The translations under genes were made by a program, and so were the position numbers. A model generated the notes under the pieces. It had not been told where the DNA came from. It saw only the letters and a list, made by a program, of their open reading frames with translations, and ran no database searches. DNA of 16,446 nucleotides from a virus (lineage: Duplodnaviria > Heunggongvirae > Uroviricota > Caudoviricetes): the IMG/VR virus record IMGVR_UViG_2737471859_000001, one strand, 5' to 3'. Shown piece after piece: positions 325-10,011 of the stretch (positions are counted from its first letter, which is position 1; each line of letters opens with the position of its first letter).

Positions 325-924
325 ATGCTTATTGGCTATGTCCGCGTATCAACAAATGACCAGAATACAGAATTGCAGCGTAACGCGCTGGAGTGCGCAG
401 GATGTGAACTGATTTTTGAAGATAAAATCAGCGGAACGAAATCAGCCAGACCGGGATTGAAAAAACTGCTCAGAACGCTATCAGAAGGAGATACGCTGGT
501 TGTCTGGAAGCTGGACAGACTGGGCAGAAGTATGAAACACCTGATCACGCTTATTGAGGAATTGCGGGAAAAAGGTGTTAATTTCCGTAGTCTGACGGAC
601 AGCATTGACACATCAACACCCATGGGGCGTTTCTTTTTTCACGTCATGGGAGCTTTAGCCGAAATGGAACGTGAATTAATTGTAGAGCGTACACTGGCCG
701 GGCTGGCAGCAGCACGCGCACAAGGACGCATTGGCGGACGTCGCCCGAAGTTGACAAAAGAACAACACGAGCAAATAGCGAGGCTGATTAAAAACGGTCA
801 TGACAGGAAACAACTGGCGATCATTTACGACATCGGCATATCGACGATTTATCGTTATCACCCTGTAGGCGATATACAGGCTGAAGAAACAACCAGGCAG
901 ACTCAGGAAAATGAAAACCGCTAA
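325..924 (+). CDS. Serine DNA invertase, Gin/Pin/Cin/Hin family
   Basis: 199-aa ORF starting MLIGYVRVSTNDQNT, with GDTLVVWKLDRLGRS and MGALAEMERELI motifs, near-collinear with Mu Gin as remembered. Confidence 0.93.
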   Translation: MLIGYVRVSTNDQNTELQRNALECAGCELIFEDKISGTKSARPGLKKLLRTLSEGDTLVVWKLDRLGRSMKHLITLIEELREKGVNFRSLTDSIDTSTPMGRFFFHVMGALAEMERELIVERTLAGLAAARAQGRIGGRRPKLTKEQHEQIARLIKNGHDRKQLAIIYDIGISTIYRYHPVGDIQAEETTRQTQENENR

Positions 925-1451: not shown

Positions 1452-4268
1452 TCAATCTTTATCGTAAAAACTGCCACGTCCGGCACGGTCGCGTCGTTCC
1501 AATTCTGCCCTGACCATTTCACCGACCAGTTTCGCCAGTTCGCGGGGATTCTGCGTAACAACGTTATGCAGATGAACATGAATTTCACCGCCAAATCCGG
1601 AGACAACAGCCTCCCGGTTACGGGAAGTTGCAGGAACTGATGCCACTGGCGATCGTATGGCCTCCGCCACCGGGCGGGAGCTGGCCGCAACAACAGGGAC
1701 CAGCGCCGGAGGCAGAGGAGTCGGGACCACGGGTGTGATGTTGATTGCGGAAGCAGGCTTACTGACCTGCGCAATCTTCCGCTCCTGCCACTCCCCACGA
1801 ACAGCAAGTGCGCGGGGCAGGTTCTTAAAGACAATATCGCCGGGGCCAATGCGTTTTTTCGTCTCATCAACCAGCTTACCTGTGTTATCAGCAATTTTGC
1901 TGAGTCTGCGTAGCGTACCGGTATTGCTGTCTGTGAGCGGTTTGTTGTCTTTGGGTTTATCACCTCCGGTGCCATTGCCATTTTCCACAGGCTTCGGCGG
2001 ATTGATTTTCGCCAGGTCCCCCTGAAGCAAGGCAACCTTGTCCTGAAGAATGGCCGCACGCTGTGCGTCTTCGATTTTCTTGCGCGCCCTTTCCGCTTCA
2101 TCCGGAAGGACGCCAAGTTTTTCAAGTATCCACGCCAGCGTATCCAGTAGCATTTTTGCAGGCGTCAGAACAAGTTGTAACGCACCGCCAAGAACGTTAC
2201 CGAATATCTCGCCAGCACTGGTACATTTATCCAGCGTTTCCTTGCTGGACTCCATCGGTGACAGCAGCGATTTAAACCAGTTAAACACCTGGCTGATCCC
2301 GCTTCCGATTGCGTCAAAAACAGGACCAAACCGTTCAAAGGTTTCGCGCAACGGGGTCAGCCTTTCCATAATCCCGCCGAACACCCCGGCAAAAAATGCC
2401 CTGATGGGATCCCAATATTTCCAGATAAGAATGGCAGCTCCGGCAAGCGCAGCCACGATAAGACCAACCGGACTGAACAGCGCCCCGATAGCACCTCCCA
2501 GCAAAGAAACGGAACCCGTCACCATTCCCCATAGTGCTGGCAGGACCCTGACAGCATTCATTGATCCGGTCAGGAGGGAAAAACCAAGACGCAGTTTTGC
2601 CAGCGGACCAGCAAGCACACCAATAGCCAGCGACAACGAGCCAACCGTTGCAGTCATTGCCAGCAACGCACCGCCTGCTATCAGTAGCTGGCGCGTCAGT
2701 GCGGGATGGGCCTGCGCCAGCGCCGTCACCTTTGATACCACACGCGTGAGCCACTGCGTGACAGAACGCAGCGGACCGTCAATCAGATCTGCAATGCGGA
2801 TGCGCAACCCTTCCCATGCACTGCCGAGTGATTTCAGATCGCCGTCAAGGTTGTTGGCCATAACCTTTGCTGTGCGTTCAGCCTCACCGCGCGCGCCTTC
2901 AAGTTCTTTTCTCAGTTTGGGTAAGGACCCGTCACCCGCTGCATCAACGAGCGCCATAAACGATGTGAAAGCCTCTTCCCCGGCGATGTCCTTAAAGAAG
3001 GATACCCGGTCAACTTCCCCGTATTTGCGGGTGGCTTTATAAAGGTCGGCCAGCACATCCTCCATCGGGCGCATTTTGCCGTTCGCGTCAGAAACTGCCA
3101 CACCAAGCTCTTTCAGCGCCTCTGCTGCTGCCTTTGGCGGTGATGCCAGACGAGCCAGGCTGGCACGCATTGCCGTCCCGGCATCACTCCCTCTGATACC
3201 CATATTCGCCAGCACGCCCGCCATCGCTGCGGCCTGCTCCAGCGATATTCCCAGCTTACCCGCCACCGGACCTGCATATTTCATGGTTTCGCCCAGTGCG
3301 CGAAGGTCAGTGTTGGTACGGGTAAACGCTGCGGTGAGTGTGTCACCAACCCGGTCCATCTGGTCAGCAGAAAGGCCGAACTGCGTCAGGATATTTGAGC
3401 CAATATCCGCCGTCTCGCCGAGATCCATGCCGCCAGCCGTTGCCATGCTCAGCACGCCCGGAAGCGCAGCCTGAATGGCCTGCGGTGTGAAGCCAGCCAT
3501 TGCAAGAAATGCCTGTCCACTGGCGGCATCGCCTGCGGTGAACTGCGTTTCAGAGCCAAGTTTTAACGCCTGCTCACGCAGCGCCTTAAACTGTGGGCTG
3601 TTCTGATCGATTCGCGTCAGTGCCTGAACGCGGGACATCTCTTTCCCGAACCCGATCGCAGGCTGCAAAAAACGCCCGGCAGCATAGCCGCCAGCCGCTG
3701 CCGCACCAATTGCCAGCGCACCACCTGTTTTCAGTTTTCCAGCAGTTTCCTGCGCGCGCGAATACCGCTCACGCGCCCGCGTTACACGCGCAAGCGTCTG
3801 CCGTTCGCGTTCAAGCTGGTTGTTGTACTGTTCGGTGCGTCTGATGGCCTGCTGGATGGTGTTATCGCTGCCTGTCAGGGAAATGCCGTGGCGTTTCAGC
3901 TCTCCGCCAAGCTCCCGCATTTTCTGAATTTCCCGTGTGCGCGATTCATTCAGGCGTTCAAGCCGGGTGCTTAACTGCTGCATCAGCTTTTGTTGTTTTT
4001 CGCTGAGCACTGTACCCGTGCGTTGTAACTGATTAAGGGCGTTAAGCTGGCGTCGTGCTTTCACGATGCTCGCATCCGCTTTACTGACAGCGTCACGGGC
4101 GCGCTCAAATGAACGCGCCTGACGCTCGAGATTTTTGATCGCCCCCTGCGTTCGCTGGATGGAGTCACCAAACTGCCCCATCAGGCGGCGGGCGTTTTCG
4201 GCAGGCCGGGTCAGCCTGTCAACGGCGCTGAAAGCGACCCGGATATCAAGAGTCTTCATTATCTGCAT
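1452..4268 (-). CDS. Tail tape measure protein (P2 gpT-like)
   Basis: 938-aa ORF, coiled-coil-rich N-terminal half, long hydrophobic Gly/Ala-rich central segment, position between E/E' and U. Confidence 0.9.
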   Translation of the reverse strand: MQIMKTLDIRVAFSAVDRLTRPAENARRLMGQFGDSIQRTQGAIKNLERQARSFERARDAVSKADASIVKARRQLNALNQLQRTGTVLSEKQQKLMQQLSTRLERLNESRTREIQKMRELGGELKRHGISLTGSDNTIQQAIRRTEQYNNQLERERQTLARVTRARERYSRAQETAGKLKTGGALAIGAAAAGGYAAGRFLQPAIGFGKEMSRVQALTRIDQNSPQFKALREQALKLGSETQFTAGDAASGQAFLAMAGFTPQAIQAALPGVLSMATAGGMDLGETADIGSNILTQFGLSADQMDRVGDTLTAAFTRTNTDLRALGETMKYAGPVAGKLGISLEQAAAMAGVLANMGIRGSDAGTAMRASLARLASPPKAAAEALKELGVAVSDANGKMRPMEDVLADLYKATRKYGEVDRVSFFKDIAGEEAFTSFMALVDAAGDGSLPKLRKELEGARGEAERTAKVMANNLDGDLKSLGSAWEGLRIRIADLIDGPLRSVTQWLTRVVSKVTALAQAHPALTRQLLIAGGALLAMTATVGSLSLAIGVLAGPLAKLRLGFSLLTGSMNAVRVLPALWGMVTGSVSLLGGAIGALFSPVGLIVAALAGAAILIWKYWDPIRAFFAGVFGGIMERLTPLRETFERFGPVFDAIGSGISQVFNWFKSLLSPMESSKETLDKCTSAGEIFGNVLGGALQLVLTPAKMLLDTLAWILEKLGVLPDEAERARKKIEDAQRAAILQDKVALLQGDLAKINPPKPVENGNGTGGDKPKDNKPLTDSNTGTLRRLSKIADNTGKLVDETKKRIGPGDIVFKNLPRALAVRGEWQERKIAQVSKPASAINITPVVPTPLPPALVPVVAASSRPVAEAIRSPVASVPATSRNREAVVSGFGGEIHVHLHNVVTQNPRELAKLVGEMVRAELERRDRAGRGSFYDKD

Positions 4269-4839: not shown

Positions 4840-5352
4840 TCAGCCAAGCCCAAGCGCGGAACGGATACGGTCAGGCACAATGTCCTTGCCGTCCTTCCGG
4901 TAGATGTGGTTCAACAGGTCGATTTCCCACAGCGGGCGATCGTTAACGCTCAGCTTGTAGTAGGTGTTTTTGACAGCGTAAGTGTGTGATGTGGCTTCGC
5001 CCTGTTTGGCTTCCCCCATATCAATTTCCGTCACACGCCCGCGCATCTCGATTTCATACAGATCGCTTTCTGCATCGGTGTAGTATTCACCCGCAAAACG
5101 CAGCAGCGTGCCGTCAATCGTGCCGCCATATTTAAGGAACAGCGCACGAACAGCTCCCCCCATGACAAAACTCGCATCAAGCGCGGAGTCGTCCAGACCG
5201 AGATCAATACTTACCGCCCCCATCATGCCACCACCACGATAGCTGTCGGTTTTGCGCGTCAGTTTGGGCGGCGTGACGGATGTCACTTTGCCCACTTCGT
5301 TTTCACCATCCACAAACAGCGTAAAAAAGCGAAGATGTTTTGGTACAGCCAT
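4840..5352 (-). CDS. Contractile tail tube protein (P2 FII-like)
   Basis: 170-aa ORF with LPKLTRK..YRG.G..DLGLDD..RFAG..MRGR..EID.GE.KQGE pattern; start overlaps the sheath stop (TGATG). Confidence 0.9.
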   Translation of the reverse strand: MAVPKHLRFFTLFVDGENEVGKVTSVTPPKLTRKTDSYRGGGMMGAVSIDLGLDDSALDASFVMGGAVRALFLKYGGTIDGTLLRFAGEYYTDAESDLYEIEMRGRVTEIDMGEAKQGEATSHTYAVKNTYYKLSVNDRPLWEIDLLNHIYRKDGKDIVPDRIRSALGLG

Positions 5353-6536
5353 CAGGCACCTCCCAGCACCGCAAATGCGGGACCAAAGAATTCATCAGTA
5401 AACGTCTGGTAAAGCTCCATGTCTTCCAGTGGCGGAACGGGCGTATATTTGTAGCGAATACGCACACGTCCCTGACGTAAATCCGTGGTGCCGTTATCCA
5501 CCACGTCATACCAGCACTCCGCACCAATCAGTTTCCCGGCAGTAACCAGCGAATCCAGTTTTGCCCTGATGGCGCTGATAACATCCTTCACGTTCGCAGG
5601 TGTCAGTGGACTGTCGATGGTTTCAAACTGCGCTTCCGCAATTGAATCAGCCAGCACCTGTGCGGTTCGGGTATACACCTCAAAGATGTAGGCGTTCGTT
5701 TCCGGTGTGCGGTTGCCCCAGAAGCGGAACCCGTTGCGGCGAATGATGGTGGTGATTTCCTTGTTGTTGAGGCTGTTGGCGTCACTGTCCTCGGCCTGTA
5801 ACGACCAGAAAACATGTTTTGACATGCCCAGGACATTTTTAACCGGAACATTGGACAGCGATTTGTGCCAGCCCTGCTCATGGTCAATATACGCACGAAG
5901 GCCGCACGCATAAGCAGGCGCGGGGAACGTTTCGTTTTTACCACTTTTCGGGTTGTAAGCGATAAAATCCGGCCACAGAAGCATCACCTCACGTTCGTTG
6001 AATTTCTGGCGGTAGGTAATCGCCTCAGCCATCGTGTTACAGCCGTGACATGAGGCATACACAAACGCGCGCAGTTTACCCGCAATCACGCACAGGGATT
6101 TTGTTACCGCCTCCGTGTCCAGCTCCGGCGCGGCCAGAATACGCGGACGGTATCCGATGCTTTCATCCTGCTCTGCAACAAGCAGCGCATACATCCCCGT
6201 ATAGCTGCCGTCATCCTCAGAACCACCGATAACCAGTTGATCCTGCGTCTTTCCGTCTTCTTCTTTGTGTTCAGCCACGCGAACGACGATCACCTTTGTG
6301 CTCACCTGGTCTGCGATGGCCTTAAGCGCACGATAAAGCGTCCCCGTTGTCCCGCATTTTCCCAGCACATCATTGACGCGGGTCAGCAGTGTGGGCTTGT
6401 TCAGCGGGAACAGCTTCGCGTCCGCATCATCCGCCGTTGCCACGATACCGATAACGCTGGAATCAACATCGTTAATCGCTGTTACCAGGTCGGTATTTTC
6501 CGTAACACGGGCACCATGAAAACGAGTTTCACTCAT
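5352..6536 (-). CDS. Contractile tail sheath protein (P2 FI-like)
   Basis: 394-aa ORF with ADDADA..FPLNKP, KLRAF, GWHKSLSNV, IRRNGFRFWGNRT, YTRTAQV and YTPVPPLE motifs typical of P2 FI. Confidence 0.93.
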   Translation of the reverse strand: MSETRFHGARVTENTDLVTAINDVDSSVIGIVATADDADAKLFPLNKPTLLTRVNDVLGKCGTTGTLYRALKAIADQVSTKVIVVRVAEHKEEDGKTQDQLVIGGSEDDGSYTGMYALLVAEQDESIGYRPRILAAPELDTEAVTKSLCVIAGKLRAFVYASCHGCNTMAEAITYRQKFNEREVMLLWPDFIAYNPKSGKNETFPAPAYACGLRAYIDHEQGWHKSLSNVPVKNVLGMSKHVFWSLQAEDSDANSLNNKEITTIIRRNGFRFWGNRTPETNAYIFEVYTRTAQVLADSIAEAQFETIDSPLTPANVKDVISAIRAKLDSLVTAGKLIGAECWYDVVDNGTTDLRQGRVRIRYKYTPVPPLEDMELYQTFTDEFFGPAFAVLGGA

Positions 6537-6693
6537 AGCTTCAGCCCCTTGTATCCGTTAAATGATTCGGCAACAATCATCACCCACCACGCGCGTAATC
6601 TCACCCCTGCGCCGTTCTCCCGCCACGGCGACAACAAAAAGCAGTAACCCCCTCCGCACGCACATGCGACCATGCCGCACAGGGAGGGAACAG

Positions 6694-7803
6694 ATGACCG
6701 ACACCACCATGCAATTGCTCAGTCAGGGCACAGACCCCGTGAAAATGCCGGATTTTGATATTCTCGCGGAGGGTAAAGCGCTGTCAGGCGTGGCAGAGCG
6801 CCTGATGAGCCTGTCACTGACCGACAACCGGGGATTTGAGGCGGACCAGCTCACCATCACGCTGGATGATGCGGATGGTCAGTTGCAGCTACCGCCACGG
6901 GGCGCGCGCCTGACGGTTCTCATTGGCTGGAAAGGAGAACCGCTGACAGAAAAAGGCACTTACATTGTTGATGAAATCGCTCACGAAGGACCGCCGGACA
7001 GGCTGACTGTTTCAGCCAGAAGCGCAGATTTTCGGGATGAATTTAACGTTAAACGTGAAGTATCCTGGCATGATGTGACCGTTGAGCGCGTGGTATCTGC
7101 CATCGCTCATCGGTATGGCCTGAAACCGCAAATCAGCGAAATGCTGATGGATATCGAAATCGACCACGCCGACCAGACCGAAGAAAGCGACATGTCCTTC
7201 CTTACGCGCATGGCGGAAATGTTGGGCGCAATCACCACAGTAAAAAGCGGTAATCTGTTATTCATCATGCCCGGTGGTGGCGTGAACGCGCAGGGCCAGC
7301 CGTTGCCCTCGTTTGCCATCACACGCAGCAGCGGCGATCGCCATCAGTTCCGCATTGCTGACCGCGAGGCGTATACGGGTGTACGCGCCTACTGGCTTGA
7401 TCTGAATTACGGGAAAAAGAAAAAAGTCAGCGTGAAACGCCGCAAACCGCCAAAACCCAAAAAGGAGAAAAGCAGCAGCCGTGAAGGTGATTATATGGAA
7501 GGCGCGGAAGGCAATGTGTTTGTGTTACGCAAGACTTATCAGAACGAGCAGGCAGCAAGACGCGCAGCGGCGGCAAAGTGGCAGCAGCTACAACGCGGAG
7601 CCGCATCATTCTCCATCATGCTGGCACGTGGACACGCAGAACTCTACCCCGAAATGCATGGCACGGTAACAGGATTTAAAAGCGAGATTGATAATCAGGA
7701 CTGGATTATTGCGAAAGCCGAGCACACCATTGATAACAGCGGCTTTACCACGCAGCTTGAGCTTGAGGCAAAAATCCCGGAATGGATAGCGGAAACAGAG
7801 TGA
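6694..7803 (+). CDS. P2 gpD-like late control / tail protein D
   Basis: ATG at 6694 preceded by agggaggg; the listed ORF start at 6562 is an in-frame upstream extension. Product (~369 aa) resembles gpD family and is followed by ogr as in P2. Confidence 0.8.
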   Translation: MTDTTMQLLSQGTDPVKMPDFDILAEGKALSGVAERLMSLSLTDNRGFEADQLTITLDDADGQLQLPPRGARLTVLIGWKGEPLTEKGTYIVDEIAHEGPPDRLTVSARSADFRDEFNVKREVSWHDVTVERVVSAIAHRYGLKPQISEMLMDIEIDHADQTEESDMSFLTRMAEMLGAITTVKSGNLLFIMPGGGVNAQGQPLPSFAITRSSGDRHQFRIADREAYTGVRAYWLDLNYGKKKKVSVKRRKPPKPKKEKSSSREGDYMEGAEGNVFVLRKTYQNEQAARRAAAAKWQQLQRGAASFSIMLARGHAELYPEMHGTVTGFKSEIDNQDWIIAKAEHTIDNSGFTTQLELEAKIPEWIAETE

Positions 7804-7845: not shown

Positions 7846-8106
7846 ATGTTCCGTTGTCCGCTTTGTGGCGCATCTGCCCGTATCCGCACCAGTCGCCCGG
7901 AAAATGATTCAAACACCGTGCGGCAAAAGTATTACCAGTGTAACAACCTGGAATGCGGCGTATGCTTCTCAACACTGGAAGCTTTCCATAAATTCACATC
8001 GAAACACGCCTCCGGCGTTCACTCATCAGAAGGTATCCCGTGGCATGATCTGCCAGCTTCACACAGGGGAAACAATCAGATGAGTTTGCCTTTACCTCAG
8101 AATTAA
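7846..8106 (+). CDS. ogr: Ogr/Delta-family zinc-finger late transcription activator
   Basis: MFRCPLCG...RTSR...YYQCNNLEC matches the P2 Ogr C4 zinc-finger pattern; aagggagg RBS; 86 aa versus 72 aa for P2 Ogr. Confidence 0.85.
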   Translation: MFRCPLCGASARIRTSRPENDSNTVRQKYYQCNNLECGVCFSTLEAFHKFTSKHASGVHSSEGIPWHDLPASHRGNNQMSLPLPQN

Positions 8107-8297: not shown

Positions 8298-8438
8298 ATG
8301 TCGCAAAAATCGCTTACAGCCATCACATTCTGCGTGACGGTAATCCTCATCATCTGGATGCTGCACGGTTCGCTGTGCGAAATACGGATGAGCTTCTGGG
8401 GAGCGGAGTTTGCGGCGTTCTTACAGTGTAAGCAGTAA
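8298..8438 (+). CDS. Hok/Gef-family-like small membrane toxin (type I toxin candidate)
   Basis: 46-aa ORF MSQKSLTAITFCVTVILIIWMLHGSLCEIRMSFWGAEFAAFLQCKQ: one TM helix followed by the SLCE...E.AAFL.C pattern seen in HokA/HokB-like proteins; aaggag SD 8 nt upstream; GC hairpins downstream. Confidence 0.55.
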   Translation: MSQKSLTAITFCVTVILIIWMLHGSLCEIRMSFWGAEFAAFLQCKQ

Positions 8439-8573: not shown

Positions 8574-8870
8574 ATGAGTGAAATGGTATTTTGTCGCGGA
8601 TGCGGCAAGGAAATACATAAAGATGCCACATCCTGCCCCAATTGTGGAGCACCTCAAAGAACAGCAAGTTCAAAAAGCAGAATGACAGCCGCACTACTGG
8701 CTTTCTTTTTAGGTGGTCTTGGTGCACACAAATTTTATTTAGGTAAAGTGGGGCAAGGATTCCTTTACCTTATTTTTTGCTGGACATTCATTCCGGCAAT
8801 CGTGGCATTTATTGAGTTTTTTATCTATCTATGCACCTCTGATGAAGACTTTGCCCGCAAATATGGCTAA
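8574..8870 (+). CDS. Zinc-ribbon + TM2-domain small membrane protein
   Basis: 98-aa ORF: N-terminal CxxC-x15-CxxC (CRGCGK...CPNCG), then two hydrophobic helices around an HKFYLG motif (TM2 signature DRFYLG); AT-rich relative to neighbours; followed by a clean intrinsic terminator. Confidence 0.75.
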   Translation: MSEMVFCRGCGKEIHKDATSCPNCGAPQRTASSKSRMTAALLAFFLGGLGAHKFYLGKVGQGFLYLIFCWTFIPAIVAFIEFFIYLCTSDEDFARKYG

Positions 8871-8896
8871 TGCCTAGTGGGCGAATCAGAATGACA

Positions 8897-8930
8897 AACC
8901 CGCAGCGTAAAAACTGCGGGTTTTCTTTTT
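8897..8930 (+). terminator. Rho-independent terminator after the TM2 gene
   Basis: aacccgcag-(loop)-ctgcgggtt followed by ttttcttttt. Confidence 0.65.
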
Positions 8931-8980
8931 GTCACCCTCACAAATGAGGGTAACACCACTCATAAGTAATAGGCATAACA

Positions 8981-9018
8981 GATCGATGCAATAAATCCGA
9001 TCGATAAAAACGATCGAT
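8981..9018. repeat. Three direct GATCGAT motifs (each with a GATC Dam site and an ATCGAT palindrome) in the com-like promoter region
   Basis: GATCGAT at 8981-8987, 8999-9005 and 9012-9018; a TATCAT -10-like hexamer at 9023-9028. Confidence 0.8.
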
Positions 9019-9062
9019 TTGTTATCATATCAGCAGCAGTAACCACACAAGAGGTGCCGCAA

Positions 9063-9260
9063 ATGACGCAAAATGTACGATGCAAAAATTGCAACAAACT
9101 ACTTGCCCGCGCCTCATTTCACTACATTGAAATAAAATGTCCGCGCTGCAAAACACTTAACAAGATAACGAGAGCCATCGAGCACCCCACACACATGAGG
9201 AGTTATGACCGTGGGGATCGCAATCCAGCACCAACCAGCACATACACCGGAACACACTAA
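9063..9260 (+). CDS. com: Mu Com-like zinc-finger protein (putative translational activator)
   Basis: MTQNVRCKNCNKLL..IEIKCPRCK..EHPT closely matches Mu Com as remembered; gagg SD 8 nt upstream of ATG 9063 (the ORF track starts at an upstream GTG, 9054); 3' end overlaps the methyltransferase ORF. Confidence 0.8.
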   Translation: MTQNVRCKNCNKLLARASFHYIEIKCPRCKTLNKITRAIEHPTHMRSYDRGDRNPAPTSTYTGTH

Positions 9261-10011
9261 GGTTTATCAGACTGACAATGCCACGCTCTGTCGTGGGAAT
9301 GCGCTGGAAATATTGCCGCTGATTGAGCCAGAAAGCATTGATGCCTTAATCACTGACCCACCTTACAGTTCGGGGGCGACACACAAGGCCGGACGCACCA
9401 ACCAGGGCAGCCATGCAAAATATCTGAACGGCGAGAACCTTCACCGCTTTGATGGGTTCGCGGGTGAAAACATGGACGCCCGTTCGTGGGCTTACTGGAC
9501 ACAATTATGGATGGCACAGGCACACCGCGCAGTCAGGCCGGGCGGTTATGCCCTGGTATTTACTGACTGGCGACAACTACCAGCTTTAACCGATGCGTTT
9601 CAGGCCAGTGGCTTTACATGGCGCGGCATCATTGCGTGGAACAAGGGGAGGGGGTCACGAACACCACATACCGGGTATTTCCGGCATCAGTGCGAATACA
9701 TTGTCTGGGGCAGCAAAGGCCATTTAGATAAATCGCCTTCGGGGCCGTTCGACGGCTGCATGACGTTCCCGGTTATCCCGTCAAAGAAAATGCACCCGAC
9801 CGGAAAACCAGAAGAACTAATGGCAGAGCTGGTCAGAACTGCGAATAGTGGCGGAACAGTCCTTGATCCTTTTATGGGGTCAGGAACAACGGGTGTGGCT
9901 GCACTGAAAGCAGGGCGAAAATTTATTGGTATAGAAACCAGTGATCATTATTTTGAGGTAGCAGCGCAGCGGCTTCGGGGGACTATTACCACAACCATTT
10001 CGACTACATAA
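9205..10011 (+). CDS. DNA methyltransferase, N6-adenine/N4-cytosine beta-class (DPPY ... FxGSGTT order); probably N6-adenine
   Basis: ITDPPYSSG (motif IV) precedes DPFMGSGTTGVAALKAGRKFIGIE (motif I), as in CcrM/PvuII-type enzymes. Start codon uncertain: ATG 9205 has a short SD spacing and overlaps com by 56 nt. No restriction endonuclease gene nearby. Confidence 0.85.
   Translation: MTVGIAIQHQPAHTPEHTKVYQTDNATLCRGNALEILPLIEPESIDALITDPPYSSGATHKAGRTNQGSHAKYLNGENLHRFDGFAGENMDARSWAYWTQLWMAQAHRAVRPGGYALVFTDWRQLPALTDAFQASGFTWRGIIAWNKGRGSRTPHTGYFRHQCEYIVWGSKGHLDKSPSGPFDGCMTFPVIPSKKMHPTGKPEELMAELVRTANSGGTVLDPFMGSGTTGVAALKAGRKFIGIETSDHYFEVAAQRLRGTITTTISTT

Follow-up and report, generated by a model that had tools for sequence, protein, structure and literature searches.

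The E. coli agn43 (flu) locus, which controls an autotransporter, carries three GATC sites with spacings of 19 and 13 bp inside one OxyR tetramer site located downstream of the transcription start, and heritable ON/OFF switching has been demonstrated there. Control by Dam and OxyR is also established for Pmom, the promoter of the phage Mu mom operon (PMC3378877; PMC2909390), whose Com protein is an RNA-binding translational activator (PMC3378877, PMC3299994); phase variation of Mu mom itself was reported as not known (PMC2909390). In the P22/Salmonella gtr and opvAB systems, which are prophage cargo, GATC pairs 13 bp apart lie in OxyR half-sites, and the promoter-overlapping site is repressive (PMC2909390; PMC7708049). 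Com-gated adenine methyltransferases (MTases) have been described as well: in FluMu (Hin1523), Pnme1 (Nma1821), Hia5 and phage B3 (ORF47/48), com is followed by an adenine MTase that replaces mom (PMC3299994). OxyR goes unmentioned in the paper on these Com-gated MTases of Mu-like prophages, nor is a GATC operator upstream of them described there (PMC3299994). Our literature search returned no paper on such an operator in P2-like com-MTase modules, nor on undermethylated GATC sites in them.

The stretch of DNA analysed here (the window; 16,446 nucleotides, IMG/VR record IMGVR_UViG_2737471859_000001) is E. coli chromosome with the right end of a P2-like prophage. Dam and OxyR, both standard in E. 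coli, are therefore encoded by the host. The prophage genes include those for the tape measure (1452-4268, minus strand), the sheath (5352-6536, minus strand), gpD (6562-7803) and ogr (7846-8106), and the prophage end reads, in order, ogr, hok, TM2, terminator, com, beta-class N6-MTase, attachment site and raiA. The cargo between ogr and com consists of a hok-family (Hok/Gef) type I toxin gene at about 8298-8438 and a gene for a small membrane protein with a TM2 domain and an N-terminal zinc ribbon (8574-8870). After the MTase gene come raiA, bamD, rluD, yfiH and clpB, and the raiA, bamD, rluD, clpB region is 98.5% identical to E. coli genomes.

An intrinsic terminator (8896-8932, plus strand) with a 10-bp stem containing 6 G-C pairs and followed by a T-run ends the TM2 gene; it is kept in phage Chuche and other alleles. 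The com-MTase pair should consequently form its own transcription unit. In the isolated phage Chuche the same pair adjoins attP-int, and this position, together with the terminator isolation, identifies com-MTase as an independently transcribed cargo unit at the prophage end.

The com gene (9063-9260, plus strand) encodes a 65-aa zinc-ribbon protein of the Com translational activator family (PF10122 Zn_ribbon_Com, E = 1e-11); in comparison with Mu Com, the four Cys and the EHPT motif are invariant, and identity is ~59% over 41 aa. As in Mu, where a homologous com overlaps the payload gene, com lies directly upstream of, and overlaps, the start of the MTase gene (9205/9211). A predicted translation-inhibitory hairpin (9185-9216, plus strand) covers this junction: CCCCAC at 9185-9190 pairs with GUGGGG at 9211-9216, enclosing the MTase Shine-Dalgarno (SD) sequence AGGAG (9198-9202) and the AUG at 9205, with the GUG at 9211 within the stem. 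Its minimum free energy is -17.5 kcal/mol (z = -2.25). The pattern GAGCAYCCCAC...GUGGGR, which in Mu likewise spans the payload SD and start, was found in 13/13 lineages examined irrespective of payload, and the outer pair covaries between the short type (C-G) and the Mu type (U-A).

The payload is where the two cassettes part. Mu encodes Mom, an acyltransferase-fold enzyme responsible for the N6-acetamido-adenine modification, whereas the gene at 9205-10011 (plus strand) encodes a beta-class N6/N4 DNA methyltransferase (PF01555 N6_N4_Mtase, E = 2.5e-33) with DPPY at residues 51-54, whose nearest solved structures are DpnA-type enzymes and CcrM. Its identification as M.EcoGII was rejected, as M.EcoGII has 349 aa and resides on a different prophage. 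Assignment to the Hia5/Hin1523/Nme1821 type was rejected too: those enzymes are Dam-related and non-specific, with DPPY near residue 194, unlike the beta-class enzyme of the window.

Some details of this junction deserve mention in their own right. The MTase probably starts at GUG 9211 rather than at AUG 9205, the distance from AGGAG being only 2 nt for the AUG and 8 nt for the GUG; the C5-MTase ORFs behind com in L127 and L150 begin exactly at the homologous GUG of GUGGGG. The E-H-P-T codons of Com (GAG CAC CCC ACA; window 9179-9216) coincide with the hairpin left arm GAGCAYCCCAC, and the invariance of this C-terminal motif may stem partly from an RNA-structure or Com-binding constraint, that is, from dual coding. 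The RefSeq name "Com family DNA-binding transcriptional regulator" (com 9063-9260; L001, L085-L090) is probably misleading.

Upstream of com, an intergenic region that is unannotated in the E. coli records listed contains GATCGAT three times on the plus strand, at 8981-8987, 8999-9005 and 9012-9018. The initial annotation had placed the three repeats at 8981, 8999 and 9012, just upstream of a TATCAT hexamer, and the positions and the 18- and 13-bp spacings proved exact. It had also proposed a GATCGAT count as a measure of how exceptional the cluster is: the heptamer occurs 8 times in the window against 2.3 expected, a count of at least 8 was reached in 2/200 shuffles, and the heptamer triple appeared in 0/2000. 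Total GATC is not enriched (59 in the window against 60.5 expected), and we rejected the plain GATC triple as a statistical anomaly, since 26% of the dinucleotide-preserving shuffles contain a triple within 38 bp. For the exact 18/13 GATC geometry, the expectation is 7.6e-4 occurrences per window. What makes the cluster significant is thus not the plain GATC triple but the heptamer triple, its exact geometry and the conservation described below.

The predicted OxyR operator (8969-9018) contains all three Dam sites: GATC-I (8981-8984), GATC-II (8999-9002) and GATC-III (9012-9015), and ATAG at 8969 marks its left edge. Every position of the window was scored against the OxyR tetramer consensus ATAGnTnnnAnCTAT-N7-ATAGnTnnnAnCTAT (maximum 20). 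Three positions only reach at least 14, all of them in the cluster (8969, 15; 8978, 15; 8982, 14), and the chance expectation for matches of at least 15/20 is 0.048 sites. The two best matches in the window define overlapping 37-bp registers, 8969-9005 and 8978-9014, whose equal scores of 15/20 make the exact OxyR contacts ambiguous. Validated sites score 13 to 16 with the same scorer (oxyS-oxyR 16, katG 14, ahpC 13, agn43 14, Mu mom 13), and the predicted operator shares its register with the Mu mom and agn43 sites. A terminator-like hairpin called at 8998-9016 on both strands was read as the OxyR half-site dyad and not as a terminator, because transcription is predicted to start downstream of it and the strong, genuine terminator occupies 8896-8923.

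GATC-II and GATC-III together form GATCGATAAAAACGATC, which has the 13-bp GATC-N9-GATC form. The agn43 II/III half-site GATCGTTTATATCGATC shares this form, and so do the validated gtr OxyR half-sites GATCGGTAACAACGATC and GATCGTTTATATCGATC (PMC2909390; PMC7708049 Table 2). The gtr and opvAB systems differ in that their four GATCs form two separated pairs and offer OxyR alternative positions for activation and repression; in the window, one compact three-GATC site is combined with a second, translational gate (Com).

The closest counterpart is the Mu mom operator. Its GATC sites, at 860, 878 and 891 of the Mu sequence (L003), have the same 18/13 spacing, 29/38 bases are identical in register, and ATAG stands 12 bp upstream of GATC-I in both. 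The promoter part differs. The distance from GATC-III to the com ATG is 51 nt here and 78 nt in Mu (27 nt shorter), and the C-activator site and weak Pmom of Mu (ACCACA, 19-bp spacer, TAAGAT) are absent save for one remnant, the 9-mer TAACCACAC (9040-9048, plus strand), which direct comparison found to be common to the Mu Pmom -35 region and which here falls in the predicted leader. The com SD sequence GAGG (9051-9054) adjoins it, and the Mu spacer, -10 and leader that would stand between the two are missing. The elements differ as well, Mu being a transposable phage and the window element a P2-like (Peduoviridae-type) prophage.

A promoter scan predicts a sigma-70 promoter at 9001-9028 (plus strand), composed of a -35 TCGATA (9001-9006), a 16-bp spacer and a -10 TATCAT (9023-9028), with transcription starting at ~9035. 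A TG at 9020-9021 makes this an extended -10 (TGtTATCAT, 9020-9028). In contrast to Mu, where the operator lies upstream of the C-dependent promoter, the predicted -35 and extended -10 region here overlaps the operator: GATC-II overlaps the -35 and GATC-III lies inside the spacer. Three lineages place a -10 hexamer 4 nt beyond GATC-III; it reads TATCAT in the window and in Yersinia, TATACT in group C and TATAAT in Salmonella. Inspection by eye of the region around 8975-8990 revealed no P2 Ogr-type late-promoter dyad (TGT-N12-ACA near -55).

Relative to the predicted start, the two OxyR registers would span about -66 to -30 and about -57 to -21. This placement bears on the direction of control. 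The register 8969-9005 ends at ~-31, near the positions from which OxyR activates (oxyS, ~-38), and OxyR acts as an activator at opvAB and at gtr OxyR(AB), so OxyR could in principle be a redox-responsive activator that induces com-MTase under peroxide stress, modulated by Dam methylation. We regard this as quite unlikely: the registers end at ~-31 and ~-22, the homologous Mu site and the agn43 site repress, and at gtr it is the promoter-overlapping half-site pair that represses (PMC2909390). Both registers intrude further into the core promoter than the oxyS activating site, which favours repression, as at Mu and agn43; OxyR would accordingly be expected to repress here rather than to activate.

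Taken together, the geometry, the OxyR match, the conservation and the predicted promoter overlap give computational support to the Mu mom-like Dam/OxyR logic that the initial annotation had suggested for the com/MTase promoter. We consider it likely that the GATC sites are the Dam-sensitive core of an OxyR operator (~8969-9018), homologous to that of Mu mom, overlapping the -35 and spacer of the com-MTase promoter. With the GATCs unmethylated, and probably also when they are hemimethylated, an OxyR tetramer would bind, occlude RNA polymerase and shield the sites from Dam. Once the GATCs are methylated by Dam, OxyR would be unable to bind and the operon would be transcribed; the Com then made would open the hairpin sequestering the MTase ribosome-binding site. 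MTase synthesis would thus need both a permissive methylation state and Com, given a Dam/OxyR gate followed by a hairpin that Com opens. A counterpoint to this reading is that a dam+ host should have the sites methylated at steady state. Such a gate would be of a known epigenetic type, that of the Mu mom-type Dam/OxyR com operon; what appears new is the phage family, the payload and the promoter architecture.

Dam could also act without OxyR. Methylation of GATC-II and GATC-III might alter RNA-polymerase binding directly, or SeqA might sequester the hemimethylated cluster and couple expression to the replication state. The 13- and 31-bp spacings presumably put the sites on roughly one helix face, which would suit SeqA, and the overlap of GATC-II with the predicted -35 and the position of GATC-III in the spacer are in keeping with a direct effect. 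The methylation state of gtr GATC4 may likewise act directly on promoter activity (PMC2909390). Nevertheless, we find this explanation unlikely as a full account, as it leaves unexplained the ATAG at -12 from GATC-I and the ATCG-N7-CGAT dyad, both of which fit the OxyR consensus, as well as the homology to the OxyR-controlled operator of Mu, located well upstream of the Mu promoter. A direct Dam effect and the OxyR mechanism could coexist.

To follow the operator across relatives, a com-anchored sample of ~100 loci was assembled by searching phages with Com by tblastn, E. coli by a distant DNA search and viral contigs by a Com-alignment scan; anchoring on com makes this sampling unbiased with respect to the motif. 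A 13- or 18-bp GATC pair or the triple was present at most 130 nt upstream of com in 64/80 viral loci, against a background of 0.005 per 130 nt for those loci themselves. In window-type loci the GATCs stand at -82, -64 and -51 from the com ATG, and L085 keeps all three despite several operator differences, its third unit reading GATCAAT. The position equivalent to GATC-I is kept in Mu, in Yersinia and in the divergent Mu-like com-mom loci L164 and L167, the latter two retaining the 18/13 triple with a different intervening sequence. The 13-bp pair at -64/-51 is kept in lambdoid com-mom, com-C5-MTase and Salmonella com-MTase modules and in a further group, and another Mu-like group keeps the 18-bp pair. 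An in-register alignment of five lineages showed ATAG, 12 bp upstream of GATC-I, in 4/5 and the three GATCs in 5/5; the other operator columns were identical in 10-20/26, and the flanks had diverged.

Relatives carry GATCAAT, GATCGAA, GATCGGT or GATCGTC at the equivalent positions, and by this comparison the conserved unit is GATC, not the GATCGAT heptamer. GC-rich com loci and the com modules of Pseudomonas and Ralstonia phages had no GATC cluster, and neither had the AT-rich com modules L166 and L168.

The genes found downstream of com in the sample encode beta-class N6-MTases, C5-MTases, Mom (L088, L153, L164, L167) and Dam-like MTases. Among close relatives of the window enzyme, Yersinia kristensenii (MTase 73% identical) combines com with ATAG, the 18/13 triple and TATCAT; in a Salmonella relative (67%), com is accompanied by the 13-bp pair and, at an unchanged offset, TATAAT. 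Relatives of the MTase without com (81%, 61% and 54% identical) are without a GATC cluster; the 61%- and 54%-identical genes sit inside other phage operons. A scan of contigs anchored on the MTase, used as a negative control only, found the 18/13 cluster in 0/80 loci and a Com-like ORF in 1/80 among the matches listed, which were mostly distant MTases. The operator therefore tracks com rather than the MTase, being present with Mom, C5-MTase and N6-MTase payloads and absent from com-less MTase relatives. Since it occurs in P2-like, lambdoid and Mu-like phages with different regulators, its distribution points to a host factor.

The initial annotation had raised the possibility that the prophage MTase recognises the repeats as its own target and so regulates itself; positive feedback would be another outcome. 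GATCGAT does contain the palindromic MTase-type sites GATC, ATCGAT and TCGA, and some Com-gated MTases (Hia5) methylate GATC among all adenines, making feedback at the operator conceivable. The distribution of the operator disfavours this idea, which we judge very improbable: com-mom and com-C5-MTase operons have this operator in front of them too, and neither kind produces m6A at GATC, the com-less MTase relatives do without it, and what is kept among relatives is GATC alone, not the heptamer.

In the E. coli lambdoid prophages L087 and L088, the upstream region, operator pair and com are identical, and the payload is mom in one and a C5 cytosine MTase in the other; to judge from this pair, a clean exchange of payload has taken place behind an unchanged regulatory cassette. 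In the E. coli contigs L180 and L181, an MTase 81% identical to that of the window starts 20 nt after ogr, with neither com, nor terminator, nor GATC cluster; here the same enzyme family is apparently under different control, possibly through co-transcription with ogr.

The operator was found in 165/5,426 complete E. coli genomes and is at least 95% identical in 164/167 E. coli records. It is not indispensable, as some alleles have lost GATC sites and kept com-MTase: L102 has GAAC at site II, so that GATC-II is lost, and in L120-L122 the array is collapsed to a single AATCAAT. Such losses, together with the disappearance of the Mu C-dependent promoter part, would fit a non-functional relic, inherited from a Mu-like ancestor along with com or produced by repeat slippage, whose regulation was lost in the P2 context. 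The test of conservation within the lineage, in which 1/12 GATC columns and 23/94 other columns vary among window-type alleles (not significant), is underpowered, the diversity being too low to show selection. Still, we hold a relic to be very unlikely. The 18/13 geometry and ATAG persist across lineages in which intervening and flanking sequence has diverged, the near-identity of the operator across the E. coli records argues in the same direction, and the operator has been repositioned exactly over the new promoter with a conserved offset to the -10. A retained Dam/OxyR operator remains the preferred reading.

In L120-L122, viral contigs of a sister lineage (Com ~83% identical; region equivalent to 8975-9022), a 31-bp deletion fuses unit 1 to unit 3, leaving no GATC, and TGTTATCAT is kept. 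This natural operator-less allele is a ready-made experimental control.

With these relatives included, the Mu mom circuit of Dam/OxyR operator, Com and inhibitory hairpin would extend to P2-like and lambdoid prophages and to N6-MTase and C5-MTase payloads, and the conserved mobile unit looks like the regulatory cassette rather than the enzyme. The window also supplies a testable candidate for Dam/OxyR-dependent heterogeneity of a second methyltransferase. A further step, which we put forward as a speculation and consider rather doubtful, is that an operator placed on a self-sufficient promoter could be a heritable, bistable Dam/OxyR switch in lysogens, and that operator, com and hairpin together make a portable three-layer safety cassette. 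A heritable switch in lysogens is conceivable because the promoter would not need a late activator of the Mu C type and because the three-GATC architecture resembles that of agn43. If this were true, ~3% of E. coli strains would have a phase-variable second DNA methyltransferase and hence a phase-variable methylome, with switching driven epigenetically and not by repeat slippage, and phages of three families would be attaching the cassette to any toxic DNA-modifying enzyme.

Several minor features of the prophage end were also recorded. The interval from terminator to operator contains a 7-bp hairpin (ACCCTCA caaa TGAGGGT; 8934-8951). This element is indel-variable: the alleles of the window, L098, L103 and L120 have it, and Chuche, L086 and L085 show unrelated sequence in its place. 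The slot of the TM2 gene holds different cargo in L085 and L086, marking a variable moron region. The ORF at 325-924 (plus strand), which has no counterpart at the equivalent position in phage Chuche, corresponds to the "recombinase family protein" gene of L001 and lies beside tail-fibre and tail-fibre-assembly genes; this neighbourhood is suggestive of an invertible segment for host range, like those of Mu and P1.
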